The notes under the pieces were generated by a model. That model did no database searches. It was not told where the DNA came from and saw only the letters and a list, made by a program, of their open reading frames with translations. From NCBI GenBank assembly GCA_963750595.1, contig CAVVRG010000007.1, positions 84,182 through 148,181 of the forward strand: a stretch of 64,000 bases of DNA. The letters run 5' to 3'. Source of the DNA: an uncultured Actinomycetes bacterium. Its GTDB lineage: Bacteria > Actinomycetota > Thermoleophilia > Gaiellales > Gaiellaceae. The position numbers were made by a program, and so were the translations under genes. Shown here piece after piece: positions 8,153 to 46,681 of the stretch; the first letter of the stretch is position 1; every line of letters begins with the position of its first letter.

Positions 8153-8216
8153 GCGATCCCGTGAGTCGAGACCGGGGCCGCCCGCTGCGGTGGTGCGGCT
8201 CCGGTCCTCCGCAAGA

Positions 8217-8282
8217 CCTCCGCTCGCTCACGCGAGCGGAGGTCGCGGACAACCCCTGAAGCGCGGACGCTCCGCGTCCGCG
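8217..8282 (+). repeat. dispersed element copy C
   Basis: CCTCCGCTCGC-TCAC-GCGAGCGGAGG, core TCGCGGACAACCCCTGAAG, then CGCGGACGC-TCC-GCGTCCGCG. Lies 3' of the coxM-like gene. Confidence 0.65.
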
Positions 8283-8323
8283 GCGGGCGAGGTTCGCCCG
8301 TGGGCCGCTCCACCCCTCCGGCG

Positions 8324-10527: not shown

Positions 10528-10892
10528 GGGGGCGACCAGGTCTCGACGTGGTCGGTTCTCCGGCAGAGCTGCGAGCCGAGGTCGCCGGTTGGCCTCGTAA
10601 ATCCACCGGCACCAAAGCAAGTGCGAACAAGAACGAACTCGCACTCGCCGCCTAGCACTAGCTAGGTAAGGCGACGCCGACCCGGATTCGGCCCGAGATC
10701 CGGGAGCCGGCGCCAACGATCGGGCTCGGCGCCGAGGGAGAGCCAATCGCCCGGAGCGCGACTCTTCAGGATGGCTGGCCCGTCGGTTGGTCGTCCGCGA
10801 ACCGGCCGCCGGGCGAGATCAAGCGCGGACTACGCTCGTAGATGCCCTGTTCGGTGCGGCCGCGGACGCGGGTTCGATTCCCGCCGCCTCCA
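10528..10892 (+). ncRNA. ssrA: tmRNA (SsrA), tag ORF 10617-10655 encoding ASANKNELALAA*
   Basis: The 5' GGGGGCG pairs with the 3' CGCCUCC, including the G3.U pair. T-arm is GACGCGGGTTCGATTCCCGC with discriminator A. The tag ends in the typical ALAA followed by TAG. Confidence 0.9.
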
Positions 10893-10995
10893 TGAAATCG
10901 CGATTAGCAGGGAAAACGTTCCGAGACGGGGGGAATGGATTCGGAAGGGTCATTCCCTGTCGTCGTCCGCGGCGAAGGTCTGAAGCTGGGACGAC

Positions 10996-32977: not shown

Positions 32978-33570
32978 CGGTGTGGCCGTGTCGCTCGTAC
33001 CAGGGCGTCGATCGCCGGTCGCTCCTCGTCCTCGACGTCGCGATGGACGCGCTCGGCCTTCTCGATCTCGAGCCCGGGGAGCTCGGCGATGATGTCGTCC
33101 GGCGTGCACAGGACGTCCGGATCGCTCGGGCCGCCCACGCCCTCGGTCAGGTTGAGCAGGTCGTGGCCGACGAGCAGGAACGTCCCACCCGGTGCGACGG
33201 CGCCGGCCGCCTTCTCCAGGACGAGCCTGCGCTCGCGGGCGGGGATGTGGAGGTAGAGGACGAGGACGAGGGCGTGGCCGCGCGCCTCGGGCTCGAAGTC
33301 GACGAGGTCGCCGACGCGGAAGTCGACCTCGACCCCCTCCTCGGCGGCACGAGCTCGCGCCTTCGCGATCGCCACGTCGGAGTAGTCGACGGCGGTCACG
33401 TCCCAGCCGACGCTCGCCAGCCAGATCGCGTTCCGGCCCTCGCCGCAGGCGAGGTCGAGCGCTCGGCCCGGCGCGAGCCCCGCCGCTTCGGCGACGAGGA
33501 AGCGGTTCGGCGCCAGGCCCCAGAGCGAGTGCGCGTGCGCGTAGTGCCGGTTCCAGTCCTCACGCTTCAC
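32974..33570 (-). CDS. class I SAM-dependent methyltransferase
   Basis: Motif I 'ALDLACGEGRNAIWLA', with 'VTAVDYS' after it. Confidence 0.85.
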   Translation of the reverse strand: MKREDWNRHYAHAHSLWGLAPNRFLVAEAAGLAPGRALDLACGEGRNAIWLASVGWDVTAVDYSDVAIAKARARAAEEGVEVDFRVGDLVDFEPEARGHALVLVLYLHIPARERRLVLEKAAGAVAPGGTFLLVGHDLLNLTEGVGGPSDPDVLCTPDDIIAELPGLEIEKAERVHRDVEDEERPAIDALVRATRPHR

Positions 33571-34720
33571 GTGGTCTCACCCCCCGACCGACGACGCGCT
33601 GGCTCGCGAGGAGGGTCAGCGCGCAGAGCCCGGCTCCGAGCAGGTACGGAGCCGCGTCGCCGAACGCCGACGCGAGCGCGCCGCCCGCGATCGGTCCCGT
33701 CATGTTCCCGAGCGCCCACGCGCTGTTCATGATCCCGAAGGCGAGGCCCTGCGCGAGGCCGGCCGTCTCGGCGCGGTGCGAGGTCAGGGCCATGCCCGGC
33801 GCGTAGAAGCCGCCGAAGCTCAACGCCGCGGCGCCGACGAGGAACGCGATGGCCGCGGGTTGCGACGCGAGTGCGAGCAGGCTCGCGACGACGATCGACG
33901 CTCCGAGAGCCGCGCGGATGGGGAGGAGCCGGCCGCGCCGGTCGCTGGCACGCCCGAGAATCGGGCTGATGACTACCTCGAGCAGGCCGGCGGCGAAAAA
34001 GACGGATCCGATCGCGAGGGTGGTCCAGCCGGCGTCGTCGAGGGCGAGCGGCGCCAGGACCGCCAGCGTCCCGAAGAGCAGCGCGGGGAGGGTGTTGAGC
34101 CAGAGCCCTCCGAGGAAGCGGGTGTCTCCGAGGGCGCGCGCGATGCCGCTGCGGGTGAGCGGCTCGCCGACCGACGAGCGGGGGAGGAGCGCGAGCCCGG
34201 CGAAGCCGAGGGCGACGACACCGAGTGTCCCGAACGCGAGCCGGATCCCCACCGCCTCGGCCACGCCGCCGAACATCGGCCCGATGATCGCACCGAACAC
34301 CGCGGCGCCGAAAGCCGTCCCGATTACCTCACCGCGTCTCGAAGCCGGCGCCGTGACGGTGATCCAGGCAAGAGCCCCAGCCCAGGTGGTGGTGCTCGAG
34401 AAGCCCTGGAGGAACCGTGCGATCCCGAGCGTCGCCGCGGTGTCGGCGGCCGCGAACGCGAAGCTCGCGACGCCGAGCAGGACGAGGCCACCCACCACCG
34501 CGGTCCTGGGCCCGAGCCTCGACGCGGCGATCCCGCCCGGGATCCCGCCGAGGAGCGCGCCCGCGCCGAACGCTCCGAGGAGGAGGCCCGCGCCGGTCTT
34601 CGACAGGTCGAACTCGTCCGCGTAATCCGGCACGAGCGGTGTCAGGGCGGTGAAGAGCATCGCGTCTACGAAGATCACCGCGGAGACGAGAACGAGGAGC
34701 CGTCGCACGTCTTCGAGCAT
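33560..34720 (-). CDS. MFS transporter
   Basis: 12 TM-like segments. Start chosen at MLEDVRRLLVLV (34720); the longer track ORF runs into the repeat region. Confidence 0.85.
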   Translation of the reverse strand: MLEDVRRLLVLVSAVIFVDAMLFTALTPLVPDYADEFDLSKTGAGLLLGAFGAGALLGGIPGGIAASRLGPRTAVVGGLVLLGVASFAFAAADTAATLGIARFLQGFSSTTTWAGALAWITVTAPASRRGEVIGTAFGAAVFGAIIGPMFGGVAEAVGIRLAFGTLGVVALGFAGLALLPRSSVGEPLTRSGIARALGDTRFLGGLWLNTLPALLFGTLAVLAPLALDDAGWTTLAIGSVFFAAGLLEVVISPILGRASDRRGRLLPIRAALGASIVVASLLALASQPAAIAFLVGAAALSFGGFYAPGMALTSHRAETAGLAQGLAFGIMNSAWALGNMTGPIAGGALASAFGDAAPYLLGAGLCALTLLASQRVVGRGVRPREA

Positions 34721-34772
34721 ACGCACGCCTGCTCGAACCGAGTCTGTCTCGACGCGCGACTGCGGCGCGACA

Positions 34773-34964
34773 GCGCCCGCGGAGCGGGCGCCTACAGGGA
34801 TCTTCGCGCTCGGTGCTCCGCGAGTGCGGAGCGCCGAGCTGCGGAAGAAAGAGCAAAGAAATGCACCGAGCCGGTGGCGCCTTCGTCCGGCTTTCCGACT
34901 GACCGCCGCCGAAACGGCTGCCGCTCGGAGAACCATCAACCTCGGACGCTCCGTACTCGGTGCA
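34773..34964 (-). ncRNA. structured RNA unit U1 (core 34862-34964 plus hairpins), probably the 5' leader of the MFS mRNA
   Basis: Closed by UGCACCGAG…CUCGGUGCA. Internal GCCGU-UUCG-GCGGC and GUCGG-AAAG-CCGGAC hairpins. Followed by 14-bp and 8-bp hairpins with no U tract before the MFS ATG. Confidence 0.5.
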
Positions 34965-34969
34965 TCCCC

Positions 34970-34999
34970 ACTCTATGCAGGCGGGGGGCTTGGGGTCAA
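34970..34999 (-). promoter_or_regulatory. predicted promoter of U1: TTGACC - 18 nt - TAGAGT
   Basis: The -10 ends 5 nt before the first base of the closing stem. The same layout is seen in U2 and U3. Confidence 0.5.
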
Positions 35000-35021
35000 G
35001 CACGCCGCGGAACGAACTTCG

Positions 35022-35032
35022 CGCAAATTGCG
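35022..35032. promoter_or_regulatory. palindrome CGCAA-A-TTGCG, 22 nt upstream of the U1 -35
   Basis: Conserved in sequence and spacing in all three units. Confidence 0.45.
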
Positions 35033-35041
35033 GAGGTTGAC

Positions 35042-35276
35042 AAAAGGCGACAGCGACGCGCTCCCGTCCTGTCGTATCGAGGCGGTCCCGACGCGCGACA
35101 GCAGGGGTCTTCGCGCTCGGTGCTCCGCATCCGCGGAGCACCGAGCTGCGGGGAGGAACGCGGAAAAGAAAATGCACCGAGCGGGTGACACCTTCGTCCA
35201 GTTTTCCGACTGACCGCCGCCGAAGCGACTGCCGCTCGGAGAAACCTTCAACCTCCGGTGCCCCATACTCGGTGCA
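35042..35276 (-). ncRNA. structured RNA unit U2 (core 35173-35276), candidate stand-alone sRNA
   Basis: Closing stem UGCACCGAG…CUCGGUGCA; GUCGC-UUCG-GCGGC and GUCGG-AAAA-CUGGAC; perfect 14-bp hairpin at 35115-35146. The final hairpin (35048-35074) is followed by a UUUU tract. Confidence 0.5.
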
Positions 35277-35282
35277 AGCCGC

Positions 35283-35311
35283 ACACTAGGGGCCCTCGCG
35301 GGGGGCGTCAA
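35283..35311 (-). promoter_or_regulatory. predicted promoter of U2: TTGACG - 17 nt - TAGTGT
   Basis: Same position relative to the closing stem as in U1 and U3. Confidence 0.5.
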
Positions 35312-35331
35312 GGCGCCCGAAAGTGAACATG

Positions 35332-35344
35332 TCGCAAATTGCGA
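35332..35344. promoter_or_regulatory. palindrome TCGCAA-A-TTGCGA upstream of the U2 promoter
   Basis: 6-bp arms, 21 nt from the -35. Confidence 0.45.
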
Positions 35345-35400
35345 AGTTTTCTTTTCGCACAGGGTCGAACTGCGCTATCCAGCGCGTGTTCTGGTGCTCG

Positions 35401-35548
35401 AAGAGAGAAAACGGCCGGGCGCGAGGGCCCGGCCGCAAGAGAATTCGCCGAGCCGGGAACGCTTTTGTCGACCTTCCCGACGAGCGTTCCGCTTCCGCGT
35501 AGTGCTCCTCGGGGGGCTTCGTCCTACCGGCGCCCCGTGCTCGGCGCA
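35401..35548 (-). ncRNA. structured RNA unit U3 (core 35446-35548) with canonical intrinsic terminator, candidate stand-alone sRNA
   Basis: The closing stem CGCCGAG…CUCGGCG carries a compensatory A-U to G-C change relative to U1 and U2. CGC-GGAA-GCG and GUCGG-GAAGG-UCGAC hairpins. The 9-bp GC hairpin at 35412-35435 is followed by UUUUCUCUCUU on the minus strand. Confidence 0.55.
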
Positions 35549-35553
35549 GCGGC

Positions 35554-35583
35554 ACTCTATGCACATAGGGCCACGTCCTTCAA
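35554..35583 (-). promoter_or_regulatory. predicted promoter of U3: TTGAAG - 18 nt - TAGAGT
   Basis: Same architecture as U1 and U2. Confidence 0.5.
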
Positions 35584-35605
35584 GGGCAGGCCCGGAGGAA
35601 TTCGG

Positions 35606-35616
35606 CGCAATTTGCG
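35606..35616. promoter_or_regulatory. palindrome CGCAA-T-TTGCG upstream of the U3 promoter, about 65 nt upstream of the divergent DMG-oxidase-like start
   Basis: 22 nt from the U3 -35. It lies in the shared divergent control region. Confidence 0.45.
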
Positions 35617-35679
35617 GCGGCGGGCCCCGCTCGCCGCGTCGAACCGCCGCCCCGCGTGCGGCCGGATTACTGTCTCCGC

Positions 35680-38091
35680 ATGCGTGACCGCGCGCGGGCG
35701 GTGGTGATCGGAGGCGGCGTCGGCGGGTGCTCGGTGCTCTACTGGCTGGCGCGACTCGGCTGGGAGGACGTCGTGCTCGTCGAGCGCGCGGAGCTCACGA
35801 GCGGCTCCACGTTCCACTCCGCGGGCCTCGTCGGTCAGCTGCGAAGCTCGCTCTCCCTGACGCGGATGATGATGGCGAGCGTCGACCTCTACCGCTCGCT
35901 GGAAGCGGAGGTCGGGCTCGAGACCGGATGGCGGGAGGTGGGGTCGCTCCGGCTCGCGTCGTCGGAGGAGCGGATGGAGGAGATCGCGCGGCAGGCGGGC
36001 TGGGCGAAGACGTTCGGCCTGCCCCTCGAGCTGATCTCGCCGGCGGAGGCGCAGGGGCTCTTCCCGCCCATGTCGACCGACGGCGTGCTCGGAGCCGCGT
36101 TCCTCCCGACGGACGGCTACGTCGACCCGAGCCAGCTCACGTTCGCCCTGGCCGAGGGGGCGCGTCGCCGCGGGGCCGAGATCGAGCAGCGCACCCGCGT
36201 GACCGGCCTTCGCGTACGGAGCGGTCGCGTCGAGGCGGTCGAGACCGATCGCGGCGAGATCGAGACGGAGACCGTCGTCGACGCGGGGGGGATGTACGCG
36301 CGCGAGATCGGCGACCTCGCGGGAGTGAACGTGCCGATCGTCCCCATGGCGCACGAGTACCTCGTGACGAAGCCGGCCGGGCTCCCGCTGGAGATGCCGA
36401 CGATGCGCGATCCGTCGCTCCTCGTCTACTTCCGCCCCGAGTCCGGCGGCCTCGTCATGGGCGGCTACGAGCGGCAGTGCGCGCCGTGGGGCCTCGAGGG
36501 GATCCCGGCCGACTTCAACGCTCAGCTCCTGGAGGAGGACTGGCCGCGCTTCGAGGAGCTCATGGAGAACGCCCTCGTCCGCGTGCCCTCGCTCGGCGAG
36601 ATGGAGGTCGTCCGGCTGATAAACGGCCCCGAAGCCTTCACGCCCGACGGCGAGTTCATTCTCGGCCCCTCGGACGTACGCGGCTTCTGGGTCGCGGCCG
36701 GCTTCTGCGCCCACGGTCTGGCAGGCGCCGGAGGCCTGGGGAAGCTCGTCGCGGAGTGGATCGTGGAGGGCACGCCGTCGCTCGACGTGTGGCACATGGA
36801 CTCCCGCCGCTTCGGGGCGGCCTACCGGAGCCCGGAGTACACCCTCGCGCGCGCGAAGGAGGTGTACGAGACCTACTACGACGTCACGTACCCGGGCCAC
36901 GAGCGCGTGGCCGGCCGGCCGCTCCGGCTCTCGCCCGCCTACCCGCGGCTCGTCGAGCTCGGAGCCGTTTTCGGCGAGAAGGCGGGCTGGGAGCGCGCGA
37001 ACTGGTTCGAGCCCAACGCCGCTCGCGGGGACGAGGCACTGCGCCCGCGCGGGTGGGCAGGCAAGCACTGGTCGGCCGCGATCGGCGCCGAGCACACGGC
37101 GTGCCGCGAGGCCGCCGCACTGTTCGACGAGTCCTCGTTCGCCAAGATCGAGGTCGCGGGCGAGGGCGCCGCGGGCCTGCTCGAGCGCCTCTGCGCGAAC
37201 CGCGTCGCCCGCGACGTCGGGCAGGTCACCTACACGCAGATGCTCAACCCGCGGGGCGGGATCGAGTGCGACTTCACGGTCACGCGGCTCGCGGACGACC
37301 GCTTCCGGATCGTCACGGGTACCGCGTTCGGCCAGCACGACCTCGCCTGGATCCGGCAGCACGAGCCCGAGGACGGGTCGGCGCGGGTCAGCGACGTCAC
37401 CTCGCAGTACGCCTGCCTGGGGCTCTGGGGCCCGAAGTCGCGCGCGATCCTCCAGCCGCTGACGCCCGAGGACCTGTCCAACCGGTCGTTCCCGTACATG
37501 CGCGCCCGCGAGCTCGCCATCGGGCACGTCCCGTGTCTTGCGCTGCGCGTGACGTACGTCGGCGAGCTCGGCTGGGAGCTCTACTGCCCGACGGAGTACG
37601 GCCTCGCGCTCTGGGACACGCTGTGGGAGGCCGGGCGCCCTCACGATCTGGTGCCCGGCGGCTACAAGGCGATCGACTCGCTGCGGCTGGAGAGGGGCTA
37701 CCGGGTCTGGGGCGCGGACATCACGACCGAGGACACACCACTCGAGGCGGGGCTTGGCTTCGCCGTGAAGCTGGACAAGGGCGCGTTCACGGGGAGGGAG
37801 GCGCTAGCGGGCGCCGGCGAGCCCGAGCGCCTGCTCCGCTGCCTCGTGCTCGACGACCCGGGGGCGGTTGCCCTCGGGTCGGAGCCCGTGCGCGCGAGCG
37901 GGGAGCTCGTCGGGCGCGTGACGAGCGGAGGCTACGGCTACACGGTCGAGCGCTCGATCGCGTACGCGTACCTGCCCGCGGAGCACGACGTCGGGACGGA
38001 GGTCGCGGTGGAGATCTTCGGAGAGTGGGTGGGGGGCGAGGTCGCGGCCGAGCCGCTCTACGACCCGCGCGGCGAGCGGATCCGGGCGTGA
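35680..38091 (+). CDS. dimethylglycine/sarcosine oxidase-dehydrogenase-like FAD enzyme fused to a GcvT (folate-binding aminomethyltransferase) domain
   Basis: 'AVVIGGGVGGCSVLYWLA' dinucleotide fold, DAO domain, and a C-terminal GcvT-like 'GYKAIDSLRLERGY…' segment. TACTGT lies 6 nt before the ATG with no SD, so the gene may be leaderless. Confidence 0.9.
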   Translation: MRDRARAVVIGGGVGGCSVLYWLARLGWEDVVLVERAELTSGSTFHSAGLVGQLRSSLSLTRMMMASVDLYRSLEAEVGLETGWREVGSLRLASSEERMEEIARQAGWAKTFGLPLELISPAEAQGLFPPMSTDGVLGAAFLPTDGYVDPSQLTFALAEGARRRGAEIEQRTRVTGLRVRSGRVEAVETDRGEIETETVVDAGGMYAREIGDLAGVNVPIVPMAHEYLVTKPAGLPLEMPTMRDPSLLVYFRPESGGLVMGGYERQCAPWGLEGIPADFNAQLLEEDWPRFEELMENALVRVPSLGEMEVVRLINGPEAFTPDGEFILGPSDVRGFWVAAGFCAHGLAGAGGLGKLVAEWIVEGTPSLDVWHMDSRRFGAAYRSPEYTLARAKEVYETYYDVTYPGHERVAGRPLRLSPAYPRLVELGAVFGEKAGWERANWFEPNAARGDEALRPRGWAGKHWSAAIGAEHTACREAAALFDESSFAKIEVAGEGAAGLLERLCANRVARDVGQVTYTQMLNPRGGIECDFTVTRLADDRFRIVTGTAFGQHDLAWIRQHEPEDGSARVSDVTSQYACLGLWGPKSRAILQPLTPEDLSNRSFPYMRARELAIGHVPCLALRVTYVGELGWELYCPTEYGLALWDTLWEAGRPHDLVPGGYKAIDSLRLERGYRVWGADITTEDTPLEAGLGFAVKLDKGAFTGREALAGAGEPERLLRCLVLDDPGAVALGSEPVRASGELVGRVTSGGYGYTVERSIAYAYLPAEHDVGTEVAVEIFGEWVGGEVAAEPLYDPRGERIRA

Positions 38092-38966
38092 CCGCGTTGG
38101 CGGACGCCGTCGAGCGCGTCTGGCCCGGTCGCGGCGCGCGGTTCGAGGTTCTCGGGGGCGGGATCACGAACCACAACCTCAAGGTCGAGCTCGACGACGG
38201 GACGTATGTCCTCCGGGTCGCGGGCAAGGACACGGAGCTCCTGGGGATCGACCGCGGCGTGGAGCTCGCGGCCACCCGCGCGGCCGCCTCGCTGGGGATC
38301 GGGCCGGAGGTCGTGCAGTTCGTGGAGCCGGAGGGCTGGCTCGTAACCCCGTTCGTGCGCGGCGAGATCCCCCCTCTCGAGCGGATGCGCGAGCCGGAGA
38401 CACTCGAGCGCGTCGCCCATGCGCTTCGGCTCTTCCACGGCGGCGCACCGATCCCCGGCCGCTTCGACGCGTTCCGCGTCGTGGAGGAGTACCGGGACAC
38501 CGCGCTCTCCCGCGGGGGCGCGATCCCGGGCGACTACGAGTGGGCCCACGAGGTCGCCGAGCGGATCGAGGGACTGCGCGCGGCCGACTCCCCGGTGCCC
38601 TGCCACAACGACCTCCTGAACGCGAACTTCCTCGACGACGGCGTACGGCTCTTCGTCGTGGACTGGGAGTACGCCGGGATGGGCGATCGCTTCTTCGACC
38701 TCGCGAACTTCGCTATCAACCACGAGCTGGACGCGGACGGTCGGCGCCGGCTCCTCGAGTGCTACTTCGGCGAGGCGCGAGCCGAGGACGAGGGAGCGCT
38801 CGAACTCATGCGCTTCATGTCCGACTTCCGCGAGGCGATGTGGGGCGTCGTGCAGTCCACCGTGTCCGAGCTCGACTTCGACTTCGCCGGCTACTCCTCC
38901 GAGCACTTCGCGCGGCTCCGCCGAACCGCCGAGGATCCGGCGTTCGGTCGCGCGCTCGAGGTCTGA
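38088..38966 (+). CDS. choline/ethanolamine-kinase-type (APH-fold) phosphotransferase
   Basis: 'CHNDLLNANFL' catalytic loop and 'VVDWEYAGMGDRFFDLAN'. GTGA overlap with the upstream gene. Confidence 0.8.
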   Translation: MTALADAVERVWPGRGARFEVLGGGITNHNLKVELDDGTYVLRVAGKDTELLGIDRGVELAATRAAASLGIGPEVVQFVEPEGWLVTPFVRGEIPPLERMREPETLERVAHALRLFHGGAPIPGRFDAFRVVEEYRDTALSRGGAIPGDYEWAHEVAERIEGLRAADSPVPCHNDLLNANFLDDGVRLFVVDWEYAGMGDRFFDLANFAINHELDADGRRRLLECYFGEARAEDEGALELMRFMSDFREAMWGVVQSTVSELDFDFAGYSSEHFARLRRTAEDPAFGRALEV

Positions 38967-39018
38967 ACATGCGAGAGGCGCCTCGCGGCGCCTCTCGCGA
39001 ACCGGATCGGCGGCGTGC

Positions 39019-40653
39019 CTACGCGCCCGCCTCGGTCGGCAGCTCGAAGTCGGCGAGCTGCTCCTCCTCCATCCGCTCGAGCTCCTCCTCGGTGCCCATG
39101 CGCACGGGGCCCTTGAACCAGTTCTTGGCCGAGAGGAACCACCAGCCGCCGAACACGAGGCCGATCCCAGCGAACCAGAGGATCGTGTAGTTCGTGAACC
39201 GCCAGTCGAAGCCGTCCTCCCACGGGAGGCCGACCTTGTACAGGGGAATCACGAAGATGATCGTGATCAGGGCGACCCACGCGATGGAGAGCGGGTCGAT
39301 CCACTTGTAGTGCTTGCCGAGGCTCCACGCCCGCGGCTCGTCCCAGCTGTCCCCGAGCCTCCAGCGGAGGTAGACCGGGATGATGAACGCGATGTACAGC
39401 CCGATCACCGCGATCGCCGTCCCGACGGCGTAGCCGACGAAGTAGTTCCACACCGCCGGGATCATCAGCACAGCCGCGAAGAACCAGATGCCGACGACCG
39501 ACCATCTCGGGACGCGGTTCCGTGCGACGCGCCTCCAGAGCTGGTGGCCGGGAACCGCGCGGTCGCGCGAGAAGGCGAACATCATCCGCGAAGCCGACGT
39601 CACCGAGGCGGTGACGCAGAAGAACTGCGCCACGACGCAGATGAACAGCAGGGCCTCTGCCCAGTCCTGGCTCATCGAGTTGGCCCAGATCCAGGGCACG
39701 AGGAGCCCGAGTGCGTTGACGGTTTCGAGTGCGCCCTCGGTGCTCGGGATTGCGAACGTCACTGCGACCAGGAGAATCCAGCCGAAGATCACGGAGACGA
39801 CGACCGAGGTCCACATACCCACCGCCGCGCCGCGCGATGCGTTCTTCGTCTCCTCGGCGGTGTGGGCGGACGCGTCGAAGCCTGTGATCGTGTACTGCGG
39901 AAGCAGCATGCCGAGCCCGAGCACGAGCAGGAACGCGAGGCCGAGCGAGGTCGTCCCGTCCCCGAATCCCGAGTTGTTGATGGTCTGCTTGAACACGTAC
40001 GAGGCGGACTGGTGCTGATCCGGGACGATGATGAGGATCGCGACGATGACGACGACCCCGACCATGTGCCACCACGCCGAGATCATGTTCAGGCCCGACG
40101 TGAGGCGGATGTTGAGGAAGTTGATGAGAGCCGCCGCGGTCAGGAAGATCGCGTACAGGATGTAGGTCGAGGCGTCGAAGGACGCGCCGAACCAGTCGTT
40201 CATGTGCTCCGAGTAGGAGAACCAGAAGTCGAAGAGCGCCTGCCCGAAGAGCGCGAGGCCGTACCCGATCGCGGCGGTGACCGCGACCTGGCCGATGAGG
40301 TTGAACCAGCCGGTCGCCCAGCCCCACCCGGGTCCGCCCATCTTCGAGGCCCAGTAATAGAGGCCGCCTGCGGTCGGATAGGCGGAGGCGATCTCGGCCA
40401 TGGCGAGCGCGATGATCGTCGCCATGAGCCCCACGAGCAGCCAGCCCCACGTGACCCACATCGGGCCGCCGTGCTCGAAGCCGATGTTGTACGAGGTCAG
40501 GCACCCCGCGAGGATCGAGATGATCGTGAAGCTGATCGCGAAGTTGCGGAACCCGCCCATCGCGCGGAAGAGCTCCTGCGCGTAGCCGAGCTTGTGGAGG
40601 ATCTTCTCGTCCTCCGAGGTGTGGTAGCCGCCCCCCTCAGGAGCCGTGCTCAT
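39019..40653 (-). CDS. APC-superfamily amino-acid/amine permease
   Basis: 12+ TM helices, 'AEIASAYPTAGGLYYW', and a GGAGGA RBS before ATG 40653. Confidence 0.85.
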   Translation of the reverse strand: MSTAPEGGGYHTSEDEKILHKLGYAQELFRAMGGFRNFAISFTIISILAGCLTSYNIGFEHGGPMWVTWGWLLVGLMATIIALAMAEIASAYPTAGGLYYWASKMGGPGWGWATGWFNLIGQVAVTAAIGYGLALFGQALFDFWFSYSEHMNDWFGASFDASTYILYAIFLTAAALINFLNIRLTSGLNMISAWWHMVGVVVIVAILIIVPDQHQSASYVFKQTINNSGFGDGTTSLGLAFLLVLGLGMLLPQYTITGFDASAHTAEETKNASRGAAVGMWTSVVVSVIFGWILLVAVTFAIPSTEGALETVNALGLLVPWIWANSMSQDWAEALLFICVVAQFFCVTASVTSASRMMFAFSRDRAVPGHQLWRRVARNRVPRWSVVGIWFFAAVLMIPAVWNYFVGYAVGTAIAVIGLYIAFIIPVYLRWRLGDSWDEPRAWSLGKHYKWIDPLSIAWVALITIIFVIPLYKVGLPWEDGFDWRFTNYTILWFAGIGLVFGGWWFLSAKNWFKGPVRMGTEEELERMEEEQLADFELPTEAGA

Positions 40654-40736
40654 CCCATCCTCCTTGTCGCTGACGGGGTATTCAGCAACGACCGAGGGTG
40701 TCATGTCAAGTCGCGCGGCGCATTAGGATCGCGCGC

Positions 40737-42080
40737 ATGCCGAGCTTCGACGAGCTGAAGGCGCTGATCGGCCGCGGCGAGATCGACACCGTCATCGTCG
40801 CGTTCGCCGACATGCAGGGGCGCCTCCTCGGGAAGCGCCTCCAGGCGGACTTCTTCCTCGAGGAGGTCGAAGCGGGTCACGAGGTCGAGGGCTGCAACTA
40901 CCTGCTCGCGCTCGAGATGGAGATGGACCCGGTGCCGGGCTACGAGATCGCGAGCTGGGAGCAGGGCTACGGCGACTTCGGGATCCAGCCCGACCTCTCG
41001 ACGCTGCGGCTCGTCCCCTGGCTCGAGGCGACCGCGCTCGTCCTCGGCGACGTGCAGTGGCACGACGGCTCGCCGGTCGCCCCGTCACCCAGGCAGGTCC
41101 TGCGGGCGCAGGTCGCGCGGGCGGAGGCGCTCGGCCTCACGCCCATGGTCGGCTCCGAGCTCGAGTTCTTCCTGCTGCGCGAGACGTACGAGGAGGCATG
41201 GGCGCAGGGCTACGAGGATCTCACGCCCTCTGTTCCGTACATCCTGGACTACCACATCCTCGCCTCGACCTACGACGAGCCATTGCTGCGTCAGATCCGC
41301 AACGGGATGCAGGCCGCCGGCATGCGCGTCGAGACCTCGAAGGGCGAGGCGTGGCCAGGACAGCACGAGATCAACTTCCGCTTCACGGACGCCGTGCGCA
41401 TGGCGGACGACCACGTGATCTACAAGAACGGAGCGAAGGAGATCGCGCATCTGAACGGGTGCGCAATCACGTTCATGGCGAAGCCGTTCGAGAGCTGGAT
41501 CGGGAGCTCGTGCCACATCCACGCGAGCCTCTGGCAGGGCGGCCGGAACGGGTTCGCGCGCGGGGAGCGGGAGACACCGCTCTTCCGACGCTTCCTCGCG
41601 GGGCAGATCGCCTGCGCGAAGGAGCTCGCGATCTTCTTCGCCCCGACCATCAACTCGTACAAGCGCTACGCGGCGGGAAGCTGGGCGCCGACGACCCTCG
41701 CGTGGGGGCACGACAACCGGACGTGCGGGTTCCGGATCGTCGGGCACGGACAGTCGCTCCGGGTGGAAACGCGTATCCCCGGCGGGGATGTCAACCCGTA
41801 CCTCGCGTTCGCCGCGATGATCGCCTCCGGCCTGTACGGGATCGAGAACGAGCTCCGCCTCCCGCGGCCGCTCGAGGGGAACGCCTACGAGTCCGGCGCG
41901 GACCGCTTCCCGTCCTCGATGCGCGACGCGATCACCGCGCTCGACGCAAGCACGATGGCCCGGGCTGCGTTCGGCGACCAGGTCGTCGACCACTACCTGA
42001 ACTACGCGCGCACCGAGCAGGCGCTCTACGACAAGACCGTCACGGACTGGGAGCGCAAGCGCTACTTCGAGAGAGGGTAG
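40737..42080 (+). CDS. glutamine-synthetase-family gamma-glutamyl-amine ligase (PuuA/GlnA4-like)
   Basis: 'GSELEFFL', 'KGEAWPGQHEIN', 'MAKPF…GSSCHIHASLW' and 'NSYKR' GS-fold motifs. Confidence 0.85.
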   Translation: MPSFDELKALIGRGEIDTVIVAFADMQGRLLGKRLQADFFLEEVEAGHEVEGCNYLLALEMEMDPVPGYEIASWEQGYGDFGIQPDLSTLRLVPWLEATALVLGDVQWHDGSPVAPSPRQVLRAQVARAEALGLTPMVGSELEFFLLRETYEEAWAQGYEDLTPSVPYILDYHILASTYDEPLLRQIRNGMQAAGMRVETSKGEAWPGQHEINFRFTDAVRMADDHVIYKNGAKEIAHLNGCAITFMAKPFESWIGSSCHIHASLWQGGRNGFARGERETPLFRRFLAGQIACAKELAIFFAPTINSYKRYAAGSWAPTTLAWGHDNRTCGFRIVGHGQSLRVETRIPGGDVNPYLAFAAMIASGLYGIENELRLPRPLEGNAYESGADRFPSSMRDAITALDASTMARAAFGDQVVDHYLNYARTEQALYDKTVTDWERKRYFERG

Positions 42081-42084
42081 ACCT

Positions 42085-42900
42085 GTGCGGGTTGTCCTGA
42101 TCTCGCAGGTCGCACCGGCGGTGCACGGGTACGCGAGCCTCCTGCGGAGCCTCGGGCACGAGCCGGTCGCCCTCCTCTGCACGCGCGAGGGCGCCGATCG
42201 CTACGGGCGGGTGGCCGAGGTGGTCGCGGGCGCGCCCGGCGAGCTCGACGTCGTGATGCCCGCGACCCGGGCGAGGATCGCGCCGCTCCTCGAGTTGTAC
42301 GAGCCGGACCTCGCTCTCTGCGCCGGCTTCCCCTGGAAGATCCCGGCGGACGCCATCGGGGTCCCGAGGCGCGGGATCGTGAACGGGCACCCCTCGCTGC
42401 TGCCGCGCTACCGGGGCCCGAGCCCGGTCTCCTGGGCGATTCGGAACGGCGAGACCGAGATCGGCTTCACGCTCCACTACATGGACGCGGAGCTCGACAC
42501 GGGCGCGATCCTCGCCCAGGCGTCGATCCCTCTCGGTGACGAGCACTCCTGGGAGGAGCTCGAGCCGAAGCTCGTCACGGCGGTCGGGGGGACTCTCCCC
42601 TCGGCGCTCGAGCGGGCGGAGCTCGGGGACCCCGGCGACGAGCAGCAGGGAGAGGGGACGTACTTCTCGTTCTTCGAGCCCGAGTACACCTGGATCGATC
42701 GCTCGAGGACGGTGGACGAGGTCGAGCGCCAGGTGCGCGCCTGGCGCTTCCACTCCCCGACGAGCAGTGACCGCGGGGCGCTGACCGAGCTCGACGGCGA
42801 GCAGGTGCGTGTCCTGCGCGTCAGCCGCGAGCTCGTGGACGGTCCGGCGCTCGAGTGCGCTGACGGCACACTCCGGATCGTGGAGACTGAGCCCGTATGA
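42085..42900 (+). CDS. formyltransferase-family protein (Fmt/PurN-like catalytic core)
   Basis: 'GIVNGHPSLLPRYRGPSPVSWAI' and 'MDAELDTGAIL' (Asn-His-Asp triad), plus a C-terminal Fmt-like domain. Confidence 0.8.
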   Translation: MRVVLISQVAPAVHGYASLLRSLGHEPVALLCTREGADRYGRVAEVVAGAPGELDVVMPATRARIAPLLELYEPDLALCAGFPWKIPADAIGVPRRGIVNGHPSLLPRYRGPSPVSWAIRNGETEIGFTLHYMDAELDTGAILAQASIPLGDEHSWEELEPKLVTAVGGTLPSALERAELGDPGDEQQGEGTYFSFFEPEYTWIDRSRTVDEVERQVRAWRFHSPTSSDRGALTELDGEQVRVLRVSRELVDGPALECADGTLRIVETEPV

Positions 42901-43613
42901 GACCCGTGATCGGGATCACGACCTACGCCCAGGAGGCGAGCTGGGGCGTCTGGCGGCTGCCGGCTGCGCTCATCCCGCTCGCGTACGTCGAGGCGGTGGA
43001 GCAGGCGGGCGGTCGTCCAGTCCTCGTCCCGCCGAGCGAGGAAGGGGTCGAGGAGACGATCCACGCGCTCGACGGGATCGTGTTCTCGGGCGGCGCGGAC
43101 GTCGATCCCGCTCACTACGGCGCCGACGCGCATCCCGAGACCGACTCGCCGCAGGCGCAACGCGACGCGGGCGAGCTCGCACTGTTGCGCTCGGCGCTCG
43201 AGCGCGACCTCCCGGTGCTCGCCGTTTGTCGCGGGTTCCAGCTCCTGAACGTCGCGCGGGGCGGCGACCTCGTCCAGCACCTGCCGGAGGCGGTCGGTCA
43301 CGACGCGCACAAGGAGATCCCCGGCACCTTCTCCCGGCACCCGGTCGACGTGAAGGAGGGCACACGGCTCGCGTCACTGATCGGGGCGCGCTCGGACGTC
43401 GCGTCCCACCACCACCAGGCGCTCGGCCAGGTCGGCGAGGGGCTGGCTGAGACCGCCTGGGCGCAGGACGGCACGCTGGAGGCGGTCGAGGACCCGTCGC
43501 GTCGCTTCGCGGTCGGCGTCCAGTGGCATCCCGAGGCGGGCGAGGACCAGGCGCTCTTCGAGGGGCTGGTGCGCGAGGCGCGGGCGTACCGCGCCGCCAG
43601 AGAGGACGGTTGA
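42897..43613 (+). CDS. gamma-glutamyl-amide hydrolase, class-I glutamine amidotransferase / peptidase C26 (PuuD-like)
   Basis: 'LAVCRGFQLLNV' nucleophile elbow and 'GVQWHPE' His-Glu motif. Confidence 0.85.
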   Translation: MRPVIGITTYAQEASWGVWRLPAALIPLAYVEAVEQAGGRPVLVPPSEEGVEETIHALDGIVFSGGADVDPAHYGADAHPETDSPQAQRDAGELALLRSALERDLPVLAVCRGFQLLNVARGGDLVQHLPEAVGHDAHKEIPGTFSRHPVDVKEGTRLASLIGARSDVASHHHQALGQVGEGLAETAWAQDGTLEAVEDPSRRFAVGVQWHPEAGEDQALFEGLVREARAYRAAREDG

Positions 43614-43650
43614 CCGCATCGGCGCGAGCCGGTCGGCGGAAAGGAGACGC

Positions 43651-43842
43651 ATGTACTGGGGGCTGGGGATCATCTACGTGGTTCTGTCGATCGTCTTCGT
43701 CGCGGACGTGCTGCGCAACCGGGCGCTGTCCGGAGGCGGGAAGGCGCTGTGGATCGTCGGGCTGCTCGTCGTGCCCGTCTTCGCGTGGGTCGTCTACGCG
43801 ATCTTCCGGATGCGCCAGAACCGAGGGCTGTACGGCGCGTGA
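43651..43842 (+). CDS. small membrane protein, PLD-nuclease N-terminal (PLDc_N) type
   Basis: Two TM helices with 'VFVADVL…KALWIVGLLVVPV'. Its stop overlaps the ALDH GTG start. Confidence 0.6.
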   Translation: MYWGLGIIYVVLSIVFVADVLRNRALSGGGKALWIVGLLVVPVFAWVVYAIFRMRQNRGLYGA

Positions 43843-45191
43843 CGTTGACGGTCCTCAACCCGGCGACCGAGGAGCCGATCGCCGAGCTGGAGCAGGCGGG
43901 CGTCGAGGAGACGGACGCGGCGGTCGCCCGTGCCAGGGACGCGCTTCCCGCCTGGCGCGCGGTCGCGCCGGCCGACCGCGCGCGCCTGCTCCGCCGGCTG
44001 GCAACGCTGGTGGAGGAGAACGCGGAAGACCTCGCGCGCATCGAGTCGCGCAACGTCGGCAAGCCGATCTCGGGCGCGCGCGGCGAGGTCGGCATGGTCG
44101 CCCAGGTCTTCCACTTCTACGCGGGTGCGGTGGACAAGCACTACGGGGACACGATCCCGGTGGCCGGTGGCGTGGCCGCGACGTTCCGCGAGCCGCTCGG
44201 CGTCGTCGGTCTCATCGTCCCGTGGAACTTCCCGCTCAACATCGCGAGCTGGAAGATCGGCCCCGCTCTCGCCTGCGGGAACACGGTCGTCCTGAAGCCC
44301 GCCGAGCTAACGCCGCTCTCCGCTCTGCGCCTCGCCGAGCTCGCCCTCGAGGCAGGCATCCCCGAGGGGGTCCTGAACGTCCTCGTGGGGAAGGGCTCCG
44401 TGGTCGGGCAGCGCCTCGTCGAGCACCCGGACGTGGCCAAGATCGGCTTCACCGGCTCGACCGAGGTCGGCCGGCTCGTGATGCAGGGCGCGGCCGGCAC
44501 GATCAAGCGCGTCACGCTCGAGCTCGGCGGGAAGTCCGCCAACGTCGTCTTCGAGGATGCCGACCTGGAGCGCGCGGCCGCCATGGCGCCCTATGCCGTG
44601 TTCGACAACGCCGGACAGGACTGCTGCGCTCGCTCGCGCATCCTCGTGGAACGCTCGGTCTACGACCGCTTCCTGGAGCTCCTCGTGGAGTCGACCGGGA
44701 CGCTCGTCGTGGGCGACCCGGAGGACGAGGCCACGGAGATGGGCCCGCTCGTCTCGGCGGCGCACCGAGAGCTCGTCGCGTCCTTCGTCGAGGGCGAGCC
44801 ACGCTTTCGTGGCCCGGTCCCCGACGGCCCCGGATTCTGGTACCCGTGCACCCTCGTGGAGGCGGCGAACGAGGATCGGATCGCGCGCGAGGAGGTCTTC
44901 GGGCCTGTTGCCGCCGTCATCCCCTTCGAGGGCGAGGCGGAGGCGATCCGGATCGCCAACGACACCCCCTACGGTCTCTCCGGCTCGATCTGGACGCGCG
45001 ACGGCGCGCGCGCCCTGCGGGTCGCGCGTGCGCTCGAGACGGGCGTGCTGTCCGTGAACTCGAACTCGTCCGTGCGGGTGCAGACGCCGTTCGGGGGCTT
45101 CAAGCAGTCGGGGTTCGGCCGCGAGCTCGGGATGCAGGCGCTCGACGGCTACTCCGAGGTCAAGAGCGTCTTCGTCTCGACGGAGGTCTAG
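43839..45191 (+). CDS. NAD(P)-dependent aldehyde dehydrogenase
   Basis: 'ELGGKSANVV' and 'GQDCCARSR' catalytic Glu/Cys motifs. Confidence 0.9.
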   Translation: MTLTVLNPATEEPIAELEQAGVEETDAAVARARDALPAWRAVAPADRARLLRRLATLVEENAEDLARIESRNVGKPISGARGEVGMVAQVFHFYAGAVDKHYGDTIPVAGGVAATFREPLGVVGLIVPWNFPLNIASWKIGPALACGNTVVLKPAELTPLSALRLAELALEAGIPEGVLNVLVGKGSVVGQRLVEHPDVAKIGFTGSTEVGRLVMQGAAGTIKRVTLELGGKSANVVFEDADLERAAAMAPYAVFDNAGQDCCARSRILVERSVYDRFLELLVESTGTLVVGDPEDEATEMGPLVSAAHRELVASFVEGEPRFRGPVPDGPGFWYPCTLVEAANEDRIAREEVFGPVAAVIPFEGEAEAIRIANDTPYGLSGSIWTRDGARALRVARALETGVLSVNSNSSVRVQTPFGGFKQSGFGRELGMQALDGYSEVKSVFVSTEV

Positions 45192-45193
45192 GC

Positions 45194-45973
45194 ATGGGCA
45201 GGCTCGACGGGAAGGTGTGCGTCATCACCGGCGCCGGAGGCGGGATGGGGCGCGAAGCGGCGATCGTCTTCGCGGCCGAGGGAGCGAGCGTCTGCGTCGC
45301 CGACGTCGAGGCCGAGCTCGCGCAGGAGACCGTCGGGCTGTGCTCCGGCGAGGCGCTCGCGCAGCGCGTGAACGTGGCCGACGAGCAGGACGTCGAGCGC
45401 CTGTACGCCGCGACTGCAGAGCGCTTCGGCGGGGTCGACGTCCTCTACAACAACGCCGGGATCTCGCCGGCCGACGACGCCTCGGTGCTCGACACGTCGG
45501 AGGAGGCGTGGCAGCGCGTCCAGGACGTGAACGCAAAGGGTGTCTTCCTCTGCTGCAAGCACGGCATCCCCTACCTCCTGGGGCGCGGCGGCGGCTCCGT
45601 GATCAACGTCGCGTCCTTCGTCGCCATCCTCGGCGCGGCGACGTCGCAGATCTCGTACACGGCGTCGAAGGGCGCCGTCCTCGCGATGAGCAGGGAGCTC
45701 GGCGTCCAGTTCGCGCGGCAGGGAGTTCGGGTGAACGCGCTCTGCCCGGGGCCGGTGGAGACGCCGCTCCTGCTCGCGATCTACGGGGACGATCCGGCTG
45801 CGTTCGCGCGGCGCCAGGTGCACTGGCCCACGGGACGGCTGGGGAAGCCGCGCGAGATCGTCGACGCCGCGCTCTTCCTCGCCAGCGACGAGTCGTCGTT
45901 CGTGAACGGTGCGACGTTCGTCGTGGACGGCGGGCTCACCGCCGCTTACGTGACCCCCGAGCAGTCGAGGTGA
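45194..45973 (+). CDS. SDR-family oxidoreductase
   Basis: 'ITGAGGGMG', 'NNAG' and 'YTASK' motifs. Confidence 0.9.
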   Translation: MGRLDGKVCVITGAGGGMGREAAIVFAAEGASVCVADVEAELAQETVGLCSGEALAQRVNVADEQDVERLYAATAERFGGVDVLYNNAGISPADDASVLDTSEEAWQRVQDVNAKGVFLCCKHGIPYLLGRGGGSVINVASFVAILGAATSQISYTASKGAVLAMSRELGVQFARQGVRVNALCPGPVETPLLLAIYGDDPAAFARRQVHWPTGRLGKPREIVDAALFLASDESSFVNGATFVVDGGLTAAYVTPEQSR

Positions 45974-46607: not shown

Positions 46608-46681
46608 GGGCCCGTAGCTCAGCTGGTCAGAGCAGCCGACTCATAATCGGTTGGTCCCTGGTTCGAGTCCAGGCGGGCCCA
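46608..46681 (+). tRNA. tRNA with CAU anticodon (elongator Met or lysidine-modified Ile2; overall closer to the Ile2 type); CCA not encoded
   Basis: Cloverleaf: GGGCCCG/CGGGCCC acceptor, GCTC/GAGC D stem, GCCGA-CTCATAA-TCGGT anticodon arm, CCTGG-TTCGAGT-CCAGG T arm. Confidence 0.9.

Follow-up and report, generated by a model that had tools for sequence, protein, structure and literature searches.

The RsmX/RsmY/RsmZ and CsrB/CsrC RNAs of Gammaproteobacteria, which belong to GacA/UvrY circuits, are encoded by several paralogous small-RNA genes that are sometimes arranged in tandem, and each of these genes has its own promoter, an intrinsic terminator, a highly structured product and a palindromic site at about -60 to -80 that is nearly exclusive to these RNA genes. 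We compared these systems with a locus in a 64,000-nucleotide (nt) stretch of DNA (hereafter the window) from an uncultured member of the Gaiellaceae (GenBank assembly GCA_963750595.1, contig CAVVRG010000007.1, positions 84,182 to 148,181), where three tandem units, designated U1, U2 and U3, are alike in all of these respects. The RNAs of this locus differ in that each is a single rod with two facing GGnCGAA strands and has no repeated GGA hairpin-loop motifs, and we know of no CsrA-type partner in this actinobacterial lineage. We consider it slightly better than an even chance that the units encode structured small RNAs which are transcribed independently under common regulation, act in trans and probably have a protein as their partner. 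That they are three independent small-RNA genes appears very probable, and comparison of family members shows the gene architecture, the fold, the transcribed strand and the independence from the neighboring MFS gene.

The units lie in a gap of ~960 bp (34721-35679) between an MFS transporter gene and a dehydrogenase-like gene. The open reading frames of the gap had a third-position GC content (GC3) of 0.64-0.73, compared with 0.90 and 0.95 in the flanking genes, and none looked coding, indicating that the gap is non-coding, as an earlier note on this DNA had stated. That note had also described three tandem modules of promoter, structured RNA and terminator on the minus strand, and these are present: three paralogous minus-strand units were found within 34721-35620, with start-to-start spacings of 311 and 271 bp. 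Each unit consists, in order, of a palindrome, ~21 nt, a -35 box, a 17-18-nt spacer, a -10 box, 5-6 nt and a 103-105-nt RNA, the ends of which are closed by UGC(A/G)CCGAG...CUCGG(U/C)G in all three units. The layout given earlier, a promoter followed by the element, holds; the palindrome upstream of each -35 box had been overlooked. The features are as follows, with the two forms of the RNA (A-type and B-type) described further below.

33560-34708, minus strand: MFS_1 transporter gene
35680 (ATG) onward: dehydrogenase-like gene, 803 amino acids, DAO, FAO_M and GCV_T domains, dimethylglycine/sarcosine-dehydrogenase type
35401-35616, minus strand: U3, whole unit
35606-35616: U3 palindrome CGCAATTTGCG, a putative transcription-factor site with its center at about -62 from the RNA start
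35554-35583, minus strand: U3 promoter; -35 box TTGAAG (35578-35583), 18-nt spacer, -10 box TAGAGT (35554-35559), then 5 nt
35444-35548, minus strand: U3 RNA core, A-type, 49.8 bits with the covariance model; rod with a CGC-GGAA-GCG tip
35115-35356, minus strand: U2, whole unit
35346-35356, minus strand: A-rich stretch GAAAAGAAAAC, just upstream of the U2 palindrome
35333-35343, unstranded: U2 palindrome CGCAAATTGCG
35283-35311, minus strand: U2 promoter; -35 box TTGACG (35306-35311), 17-nt spacer, -10 box TAGTGT (35283-35288), then 6 nt
35173-35276, minus strand: U2 RNA core, B-type, 104.5 bits with the covariance model
34808-35032, minus strand: U1, whole unit
35022-35032, unstranded: U1 palindrome CGCAAATTGCG
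34970-34999, minus strand: U1 promoter; -35 box TTGACC (34994-34999), 18-nt spacer, -10 box TAGAGT (34970-34975), then 5 nt
34862-34964, minus strand: U1 RNA core, B-type, 121.3 bits with the covariance model

A degenerate pattern scan of species-representative genomes returned at least 120 stretches, most of which were chance matches, and nhmmer with a profile of the three units identified true copies in 19 loci among the matches listed. Fifteen of these 19 loci were tandem, with three copies in 13 and two in 2, again among the matches listed, and at least one of the two-copy tandem loci (L033) ends at a contig end. A second, tighter pattern applied to metagenome contigs gave at least 120 matches. 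In total, at least 184 copies (at least 169 distinct cores) were found in at least 129 genome and metagenome loci, so the homologs sought with the three-unit nhmmer profile do exist; among the matches listed, 96 of 129 loci contained one copy, 11 contained two and 22 contained three. The named hosts, among the matches listed, were all Gaiellaceae, Gaiellales, Thermoleophilia or unclassified Actinomycetota (metagenome-assembled). Seven pattern matches in viral contigs were attributed to chance, none of them being confirmed by nhmmer. Within the window, the three cores were the only significant matches to the family model. A weak match at 8181-8287 on the minus strand (22 bits, E about 0.007) has no palindrome in its vicinity and is probably a GC-rich hairpin that matches by chance.

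The three cores folded markedly better than shuffled sequence (z = -4.2 to -5.5), and the minimum-energy fold of every unit was a single long irregular hairpin, or rod, of -56 to -59 kcal/mol. The A-type alignment consisted of 61 distinct 106-nt copies and was gap-free, hence free of alignment bias. In this alignment 94.6% of the cells were paired in the rod, compared with 84.7% in shuffles, and 17 pairs and 195 cells were changed on both sides, a level that 0 of 500 shuffles attained; slid controls gave only 20-49 cells with changes on both sides. The B-type rod (29 distinct copies) had 96.1% of its cells paired and 10 pairs with compensatory change, and 0 of 500 shuffles reached 10. Covariation in related copies was thus strong, and the A-U to G-C change that the earlier note had pointed out in the closing stem is real. 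The multi-hairpin fold proposed there was not supported, however: covariation and the minimum-energy fold both favor the single rod, and the GUCGG/CCGGAC hairpin, which had been said to covary, shows no compensatory change, whereas the competing rod pairing does. An alternative fold of this kind was rejected on the B-type alignment, where its differing hairpins, GUCGG/CCGGAC and CGGAG/CUCCG, show no compensatory change.

Conservation is unevenly distributed along the rod. In the A-type, covariation is unrestricted in the upper helices and in the 3-bp stem at the tip (CGC/GCG, GGC/GCC, CCC/GGG), whereas in the lower stem 8 of the 15 pairs never vary among the 61 distinct copies and one more alternates only between G-C and A-U. 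The invariant unpaired bases of the A-type are U23 A24 G25 G26, G29 A30, G80 G81 A82 C83, A86 A87, A50, A62 and the GNRA positions. In the central loop, UAGGnCGAAG stands opposite GGACGAAAG, above the invariant lower stem CCGAG-C-A-CGG / CCG-G-CUCGG, so that two GGnCGAA strands face each other and give the loop a rough two-fold symmetry. Conserved G-U pairs are frequent (in 57/61 and 51/61 copies at two positions, for example), which fixes the transcribed strand. These pairs would be A-C mismatches on the other strand, and the family model scored 121 bits on the minus strand and 28 on the plus strand, in agreement with the minus-strand call made earlier.

The promoter boxes of U1, U2 and U3 were found exactly as they had been listed in the earlier note, and the U1 promoter was the sole site that passed a strict promoter scan. 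The arrangement TTGnnn, 16-19 nt, TAnnnT and 4-6 nt to the closing stem was present in 169 of the 172 family copies with 100 nt of upstream sequence, with a spacer of 17 nt in 148 copies and a -10-to-stem distance of 6 nt in 150. The closing stem begins 6 nt after the -10 box in these 150 copies, so the predicted start is the first base of the rod. The candidate driver of each RNA gene is a promoter of the housekeeping type (TTGAnn, 17-18 nt, TAGnGT).

The 11-bp palindrome CGCAAWTTGCG (site TCGCAAWTTGCGA / TCGCAAATTGCGA) lies ~21 nt upstream of every -35 box in the window, which contains only these three copies against 0.45 expected by chance. Across the family, a palindrome-like site was present 20-23 nt upstream of the -35 box in 139 of the 172 copies, often preceded by an A-rich stretch. 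The 1.64 Mb of collected DNA, of which unrelated loci make up roughly 1 Mb, contained 90 exact CGCAAWTTGCG sites, and every one of them was followed by an RNA copy 40-110 nt downstream. A center ~62 bp upstream of the start would be the position of an upstream activator site, and the palindrome presumably places every copy under one dedicated DNA-binding regulator. The ClgR-type operator (CGC-N5-GCG) is a possible lead for the palindrome. A site shared by the RNA and the divergent dehydrogenase-like gene was considered and rejected, the distance between them varying from ~70 to ~320 bp in five arrays examined by hand. Two further blocks are conserved in orthologous arrays: CUAGAGCA(C/U)G... 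just after the A-type terminator, where the window is degenerate (35383-35400, CGAGCACCAGAACACGCG), and CUGUG(C/U)GAAAAGAAAA just before the B-type palindrome (35346-35372 in the window).

All three units end in terminator-like signals, and two of them are followed by spacer hairpins.

35401-35436, minus strand: canonical intrinsic terminator of U3, a GC hairpin followed by UUUUCUCUCUU
35162-35172, minus strand: U2 U tract UUUUCUUUUCC, directly after the closing stem
34843-34861, minus strand: U1 U-rich tail UUUCUUUGCUCUUUCUUCC (AUUUCUUUGCUCUUUCUUCC), directly after the closing stem
35115-35146: perfect 14-bp hairpin after U2, with arms GCUCGGUGC / GCACCGAGC that repeat the closing-stem sequence
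34808-34839: near-perfect hairpin after U1, a paralogue of 35115-35146

U1 had been reported to lack a U tract, but its closing stem is directly followed by the U-rich tract at 34843-34861, and a terminator scan flagged the base of the U1 rod together with this tract. At least four T residues occur within 10 nt after the stem in 143 of 174 copies; in most copies AAUUUUUUU follows the stem directly, and others have a separate hairpin and U tract. The rod base and the U-rich tract would thus double as an intrinsic terminator in U1 and U2, and U3 has a separate GC hairpin and U tract, a type of terminator that is kept after the A-type units of orthologous arrays. This would be a compact design, with nearly all of the RNA serving both as the functional rod and as the terminator of its own transcription. 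The spacer hairpins at 34808-34839 and 35115-35146 are absent from orthologous arrays and have no U tract on either strand. In 94 of 174 copies the next bases after the U tract are a pentamer, GG(U/A)CC (AAUUUUUUUGGUCC; for example L199:8037-8055, L186 and L161); it forms the base of a second terminator hairpin in some lineages, and no partner is evident in others. Pairing of the conserved GGUCC of the tail with the loop GGAC was rejected, as it showed no covariation and tails such as UUUAACC do not fit it.

With its own promoter and its own terminator, conserved as a unit, and with compensatory changes in its structure, each RNA has the makings of a stand-alone small-RNA gene, which is what the earlier note had proposed for U2 and U3. 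U1 had been taken instead for a cis leader of the MFS gene, ending ~50 nt before its start codon. Comparison of orthologs placed the start at GTG 34708, 153 nt away, and the gene has a putative promoter element of its own.

34716-34721, minus strand: MFS -10-like box TATGCT, then 7 nt and the GTG at 34706-34708, leaderless-type geometry

In all 16 arrays in which the start could be placed, the MFS gene has a TAnnnT box for itself (mostly TATCCT or TATGCT), with the start codon 6-7 nt further on, and the distance from the last RNA to this box or start ranges from 27 to 153 nt. A -10 box so close to the start codon is typical of leaderless mRNAs in actinobacteria, and no Shine-Dalgarno sequence was seen at the MFS start in the examples read. 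U1 has the same promoter, palindrome, stem and U tract as the other units, and, judged from this arrangement, it is probably not a cis leader. A TehB/TPMT-like methyltransferase gene comes after the MFS gene.

The units could also act as tandem riboswitch-like attenuators, ligand-bound rods causing termination and so setting read-through into the MFS and methyltransferase genes. The conserved bases cluster in internal loops and the helices covary, as in aptamers, the U tract directly follows the closing stem, the last unit is always 27-153 nt upstream of the MFS start, and in some lineages smpB follows within ~20 nt. We nevertheless regard this role as improbable. Each copy comes with a separate promoter and a separate palindrome upstream, no alternative anti-terminator pairing is found upstream of the stem, and on a read-through transcript the MFS start codon, for which no Shine-Dalgarno sequence was seen, would be buried. 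The leaderless-type -10 box found directly before the MFS gene in 16/16 arrays and the functionally unrelated or convergent genes downstream of other family members argue against a riboswitch or attenuator role, including that of a ligand sensor for amine or MFS genes, which the earlier note had considered. The family as a whole shows an RNA with its own promoter upstream of genes of no consistent functional class. Rod-shaped aptamers (nhaA-I/Li+, NMT1/xanthine) and tandem glycine riboswitches resemble these RNAs in that conserved internal loops interrupt a covarying hairpin and that tandem copies precede a transporter gene; they differ in that here promoter and terminator belong to each single unit, the transporter is served by a promoter at its start site, no gene context is shared across the family and no Rfam riboswitch model matches.

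The comparison with Rfam 15 covered 4227 models, including glycine, ykkC/guanidine-I to -IV, ZTP, TPP, SAM, cobalamin, ydaO, SRP, 6S, Y RNA and tmRNA. The three units gave no match at gathering score and nothing relevant at E<=10, and two typical A-type family members likewise gave nothing relevant in Rfam 15 at either level. The best chance match at E<=10 was 'gyrA RNA', which fell on the spacer hairpin 34808-34839 and whose 22 bits were well short of the cutoff of 45. The units therefore match no significant Rfam family, and the earlier failure to assign them to known riboswitch classes stands. By-eye comparison with SRP, 6S, Y RNA, ykkC/guanidine-III, glycine, hammerhead and kink-turn elements yielded a few short shared strings, none of which passed a model test. 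The Thermoleophilia, above all the Gaiellales, are soil bacteria that have been little studied. The full-text literature searched yielded no small RNA or riboswitch for Gaiella, Thermoleophilia or Conexibacter, the large Breaker-laboratory surveys of bacterial non-coding RNAs that were consulted do not mention these taxa, and no regulatory RNA described for this lineage was found in Rfam 15 or in the searched literature. We therefore treat the family as undescribed, within the known kind of regulator-controlled structured small RNA. With at least 169 distinct members, clear covariation, a nearly invariant promoter and an upstream site that in the collected DNA is exclusive to it, it is among the better-supported orphan RNA classes obtainable from sequence alone.

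Three known RNAs of similar shape were compared with the family. The small (4.5S) SRP RNA is alike in being a rod of ~100-115 nt with paired ends, conserved internal loops near a GNRA (GGAA) tip and a housekeeping neighborhood. It differs in that the family has no Rfam SRP match even at E<=10, has NNUA/GAAN loops (most often AGUA/GAAG) in place of the AGG/AGCA of SRP, occurs in 1-3 copies and in its B-type has the tip replaced by a UUCG hairpin. Bacterial Y RNAs, the partners of Rsr/Ro, are alike in their length of ~100-130 nt, paired ends, conserved bulged helices and sometimes tandem genes; in contrast, the present RNAs have no tRNA-like module and no Rfam Y_RNA or YrlA match, and no rsr gene was seen in the neighborhoods looked at, although no search aimed at rsr was made. 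The 6S RNA is likewise the product of a stand-alone gene and a rod with a closing stem, a central bubble, an upper stem and a terminal loop.

A miniature 6S-like decoy of RNA polymerase, in which stem, bubble and upper stem would imitate an open promoter, draws on this last likeness: the closing stem has ~15 pairs, the bubble is 12 x 8 nt, single copies lie in a housekeeping neighborhood and 16 loci have, ~1.2 kb away, a gene cluster whose longest member is primary-sigma-factor-like by eye. We consider such a decoy very unlikely. At 105 nt the RNA is about half the size of known 6S RNAs (~150-200 nt), its stems are invariant in sequence, unlike those of 6S, it matches no Rfam 6S model, several copies occur under a putative dedicated regulator site, and closeness to the sigma-factor-like gene may be plain synteny.

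The family comprises two forms. The A-type, to which U3 belongs, is the widespread form; it is usually 106 nt, sometimes ~120 nt with an extended tip, and has the consensus UGCGCCGAGCACGGAGCGCGAGUAGGUCGAAGC - variable helix - GUA-CGC-GGAA-GCG-GAA - variable helix - GUGGACGAAAGCGCCACCGGCUCGGCGAA. Its internal loop, NNUA/GAAN (most often AGUA/GAAG), lies below a 3-bp stem capped by a GNRA loop, a tip module that looks like the bulged-G (loop E-like) motif. In the B-type (U2 and U1) the tip is a plain UUCG, sometimes GCAA, hairpin, and the 5' loop strand is AGGUUGAUGG. B-type copies were found in arrays plus one single copy elsewhere (L091), among the matches listed. U3 is the ancestral A-type form, and the B-types U2 and U1 are derived forms.

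Synteny analysis with tblastn showed that orthologous arrays consist of a dehydrogenase-like gene, three RNAs directed away from it and an MFS gene, with proteins 55-89% identical to those of the window, which makes a Gaiellaceae origin of the window very probable. The order A-B-B, with the three units on the same strand, is kept in 20 of 20 complete arrays, and wherever the gene downstream of an A-B-B array is visible it is an MFS gene. These results bear on a further alternative, namely that the units are selfish or functionless repeats, for example a terminator cluster or a miniature inverted-repeat element. Tandem units, inverted-repeat ends (UGCACCGAG...CUCGGUGCA) and varying copy number are what such a repeat would show. 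The arrays keep orthologous positions, however, although identity between the flanking proteins is as low as 55-89%; the promoters keep their geometry; compensatory changes and the G-U asymmetry indicate selection at the RNA level; and there are no target-site duplications or scattered copies, just three adjacent units in the window. We find a selfish or functionless origin hardly credible.

Other members of the family occupy different neighborhoods, preceding smpB, a UvrD-like helicase gene, a FUSC-family gene or a gene for a 62-amino-acid membrane protein, or facing convergent genes. At a second locus, 1-3 A-type copies (including AA and AAA arrays) have bacA/uppP as the divergent gene and the 62-amino-acid membrane-protein gene downstream. 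The occurrence of A-type tandem copies there indicates that tandem amplification happened more than once. The small membrane-protein gene downstream of single-copy RNAs has TAGGAT, 7-8 nt and ATG, a leaderless-type geometry. In one lineage (L158, L213, L127, L224) the RNA lies ~80 nt after an RNase R-like gene, identified by eye, and before smpB, which begins 17-22 nt after the U tract; tmRNA genes are often located at this very position. The distance from the RNA to the start of smpB is ~20 nt in five loci, with no obvious smpB promoter by eye.

Each transcript is predicted to be ~105 nt long and to fold into one long irregular hairpin, and the RNAs would act in trans, most likely by binding, perhaps titrating, a protein that may be dimeric. 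Contact would be made with the invariant lower stem and with the central loop, which is likewise invariant and roughly two-fold symmetric. We favor a protein-binding trans-acting RNA because of the invariant paired stem, the symmetric invariant loop, the recurrent amplification and the apparently reserved upstream site. A function as a protein decoy is a tentative proposal, to which we give somewhat less than even weight. Such a circuit would resemble a regulator that drives multi-copy decoy RNAs, as GacA does with RsmX/Y/Z. Each RNA has two facing GGnCGAA strands and each locus 1-3 RNA copies, and in a more specific version, which we think rather unlikely as a whole, one regulator would recognize TCGCAAWTTGCGA and drive 1-3 copies of the rod RNA, whose stem and loop would capture a dimeric protein. 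If true, actinobacteria would have in this circuit a counterpart of the Gac/Rsm decoy system that is assembled from unrelated components, with the B-type copies next to the MFS and amine-catabolism genes as a specialized offshoot. The family offers a direct handle on two factors, the palindrome-binding regulator and the RNA-binding factor.

Alternatively, the RNAs may act in trans by base-pairing, their purine-rich loops (GGACGAAAG, UAGGnCGAAG, GGAA) pairing with pyrimidine-rich mRNA and controlling translation or stability. The gene architecture suits this mechanism as well as it suits protein binding, the conserved unpaired segments are long enough for seeds, and the leaderless MFS genes have many CUC and GUC codons in the 5' part of their coding regions, although such a match to Leu/Val codons is expected in any high-GC membrane-protein gene. 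However, the most invariant part of the RNA is the paired lower stem and not a single-stranded seed, the loop strands face each other within a stable rod (-56 to -59 kcal/mol), and no conserved target site was identified. We judge base-pairing to be unlikely.

Several points weigh against independently transcribed, protein-binding RNAs. The transcript ends are predicted from the sequence, and, judged by the spacing, read-through into smpB must occur at least in the five loci described above. In the neighborhoods examined, no RNA-binding protein gene recurs next to the RNA, and neither a partner protein nor a regulator gene was identified. The invariance of the lower stem could reflect constraints on the initially transcribed sequence and the terminator in place of protein contact, and the purine-rich loops could pair with pyrimidine-rich mRNA segments. 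The likeness to Gac/Rsm is one of logic only, the RNA here being without repeated GGA hairpin loops.

Outside the gap, the only Rfam gathering-level matches in the window were a standard one-piece tmRNA at 10528-10895 on the plus strand (140 bits) and a tRNA at 46608-46681 on the plus strand. The dehydrogenase-like gene is apparently leaderless, with TACTGT, 6 nt and the ATG at 35680 (35665-35682; by eye, coordinates approximate). Beyond it, the region 38100-45200 contains amino-acid permease, glutamine-synthetase-like, formyltransferase-domain (PurU-like) and aldehyde dehydrogenase genes, a set that looks like one for methylated-amine catabolism.

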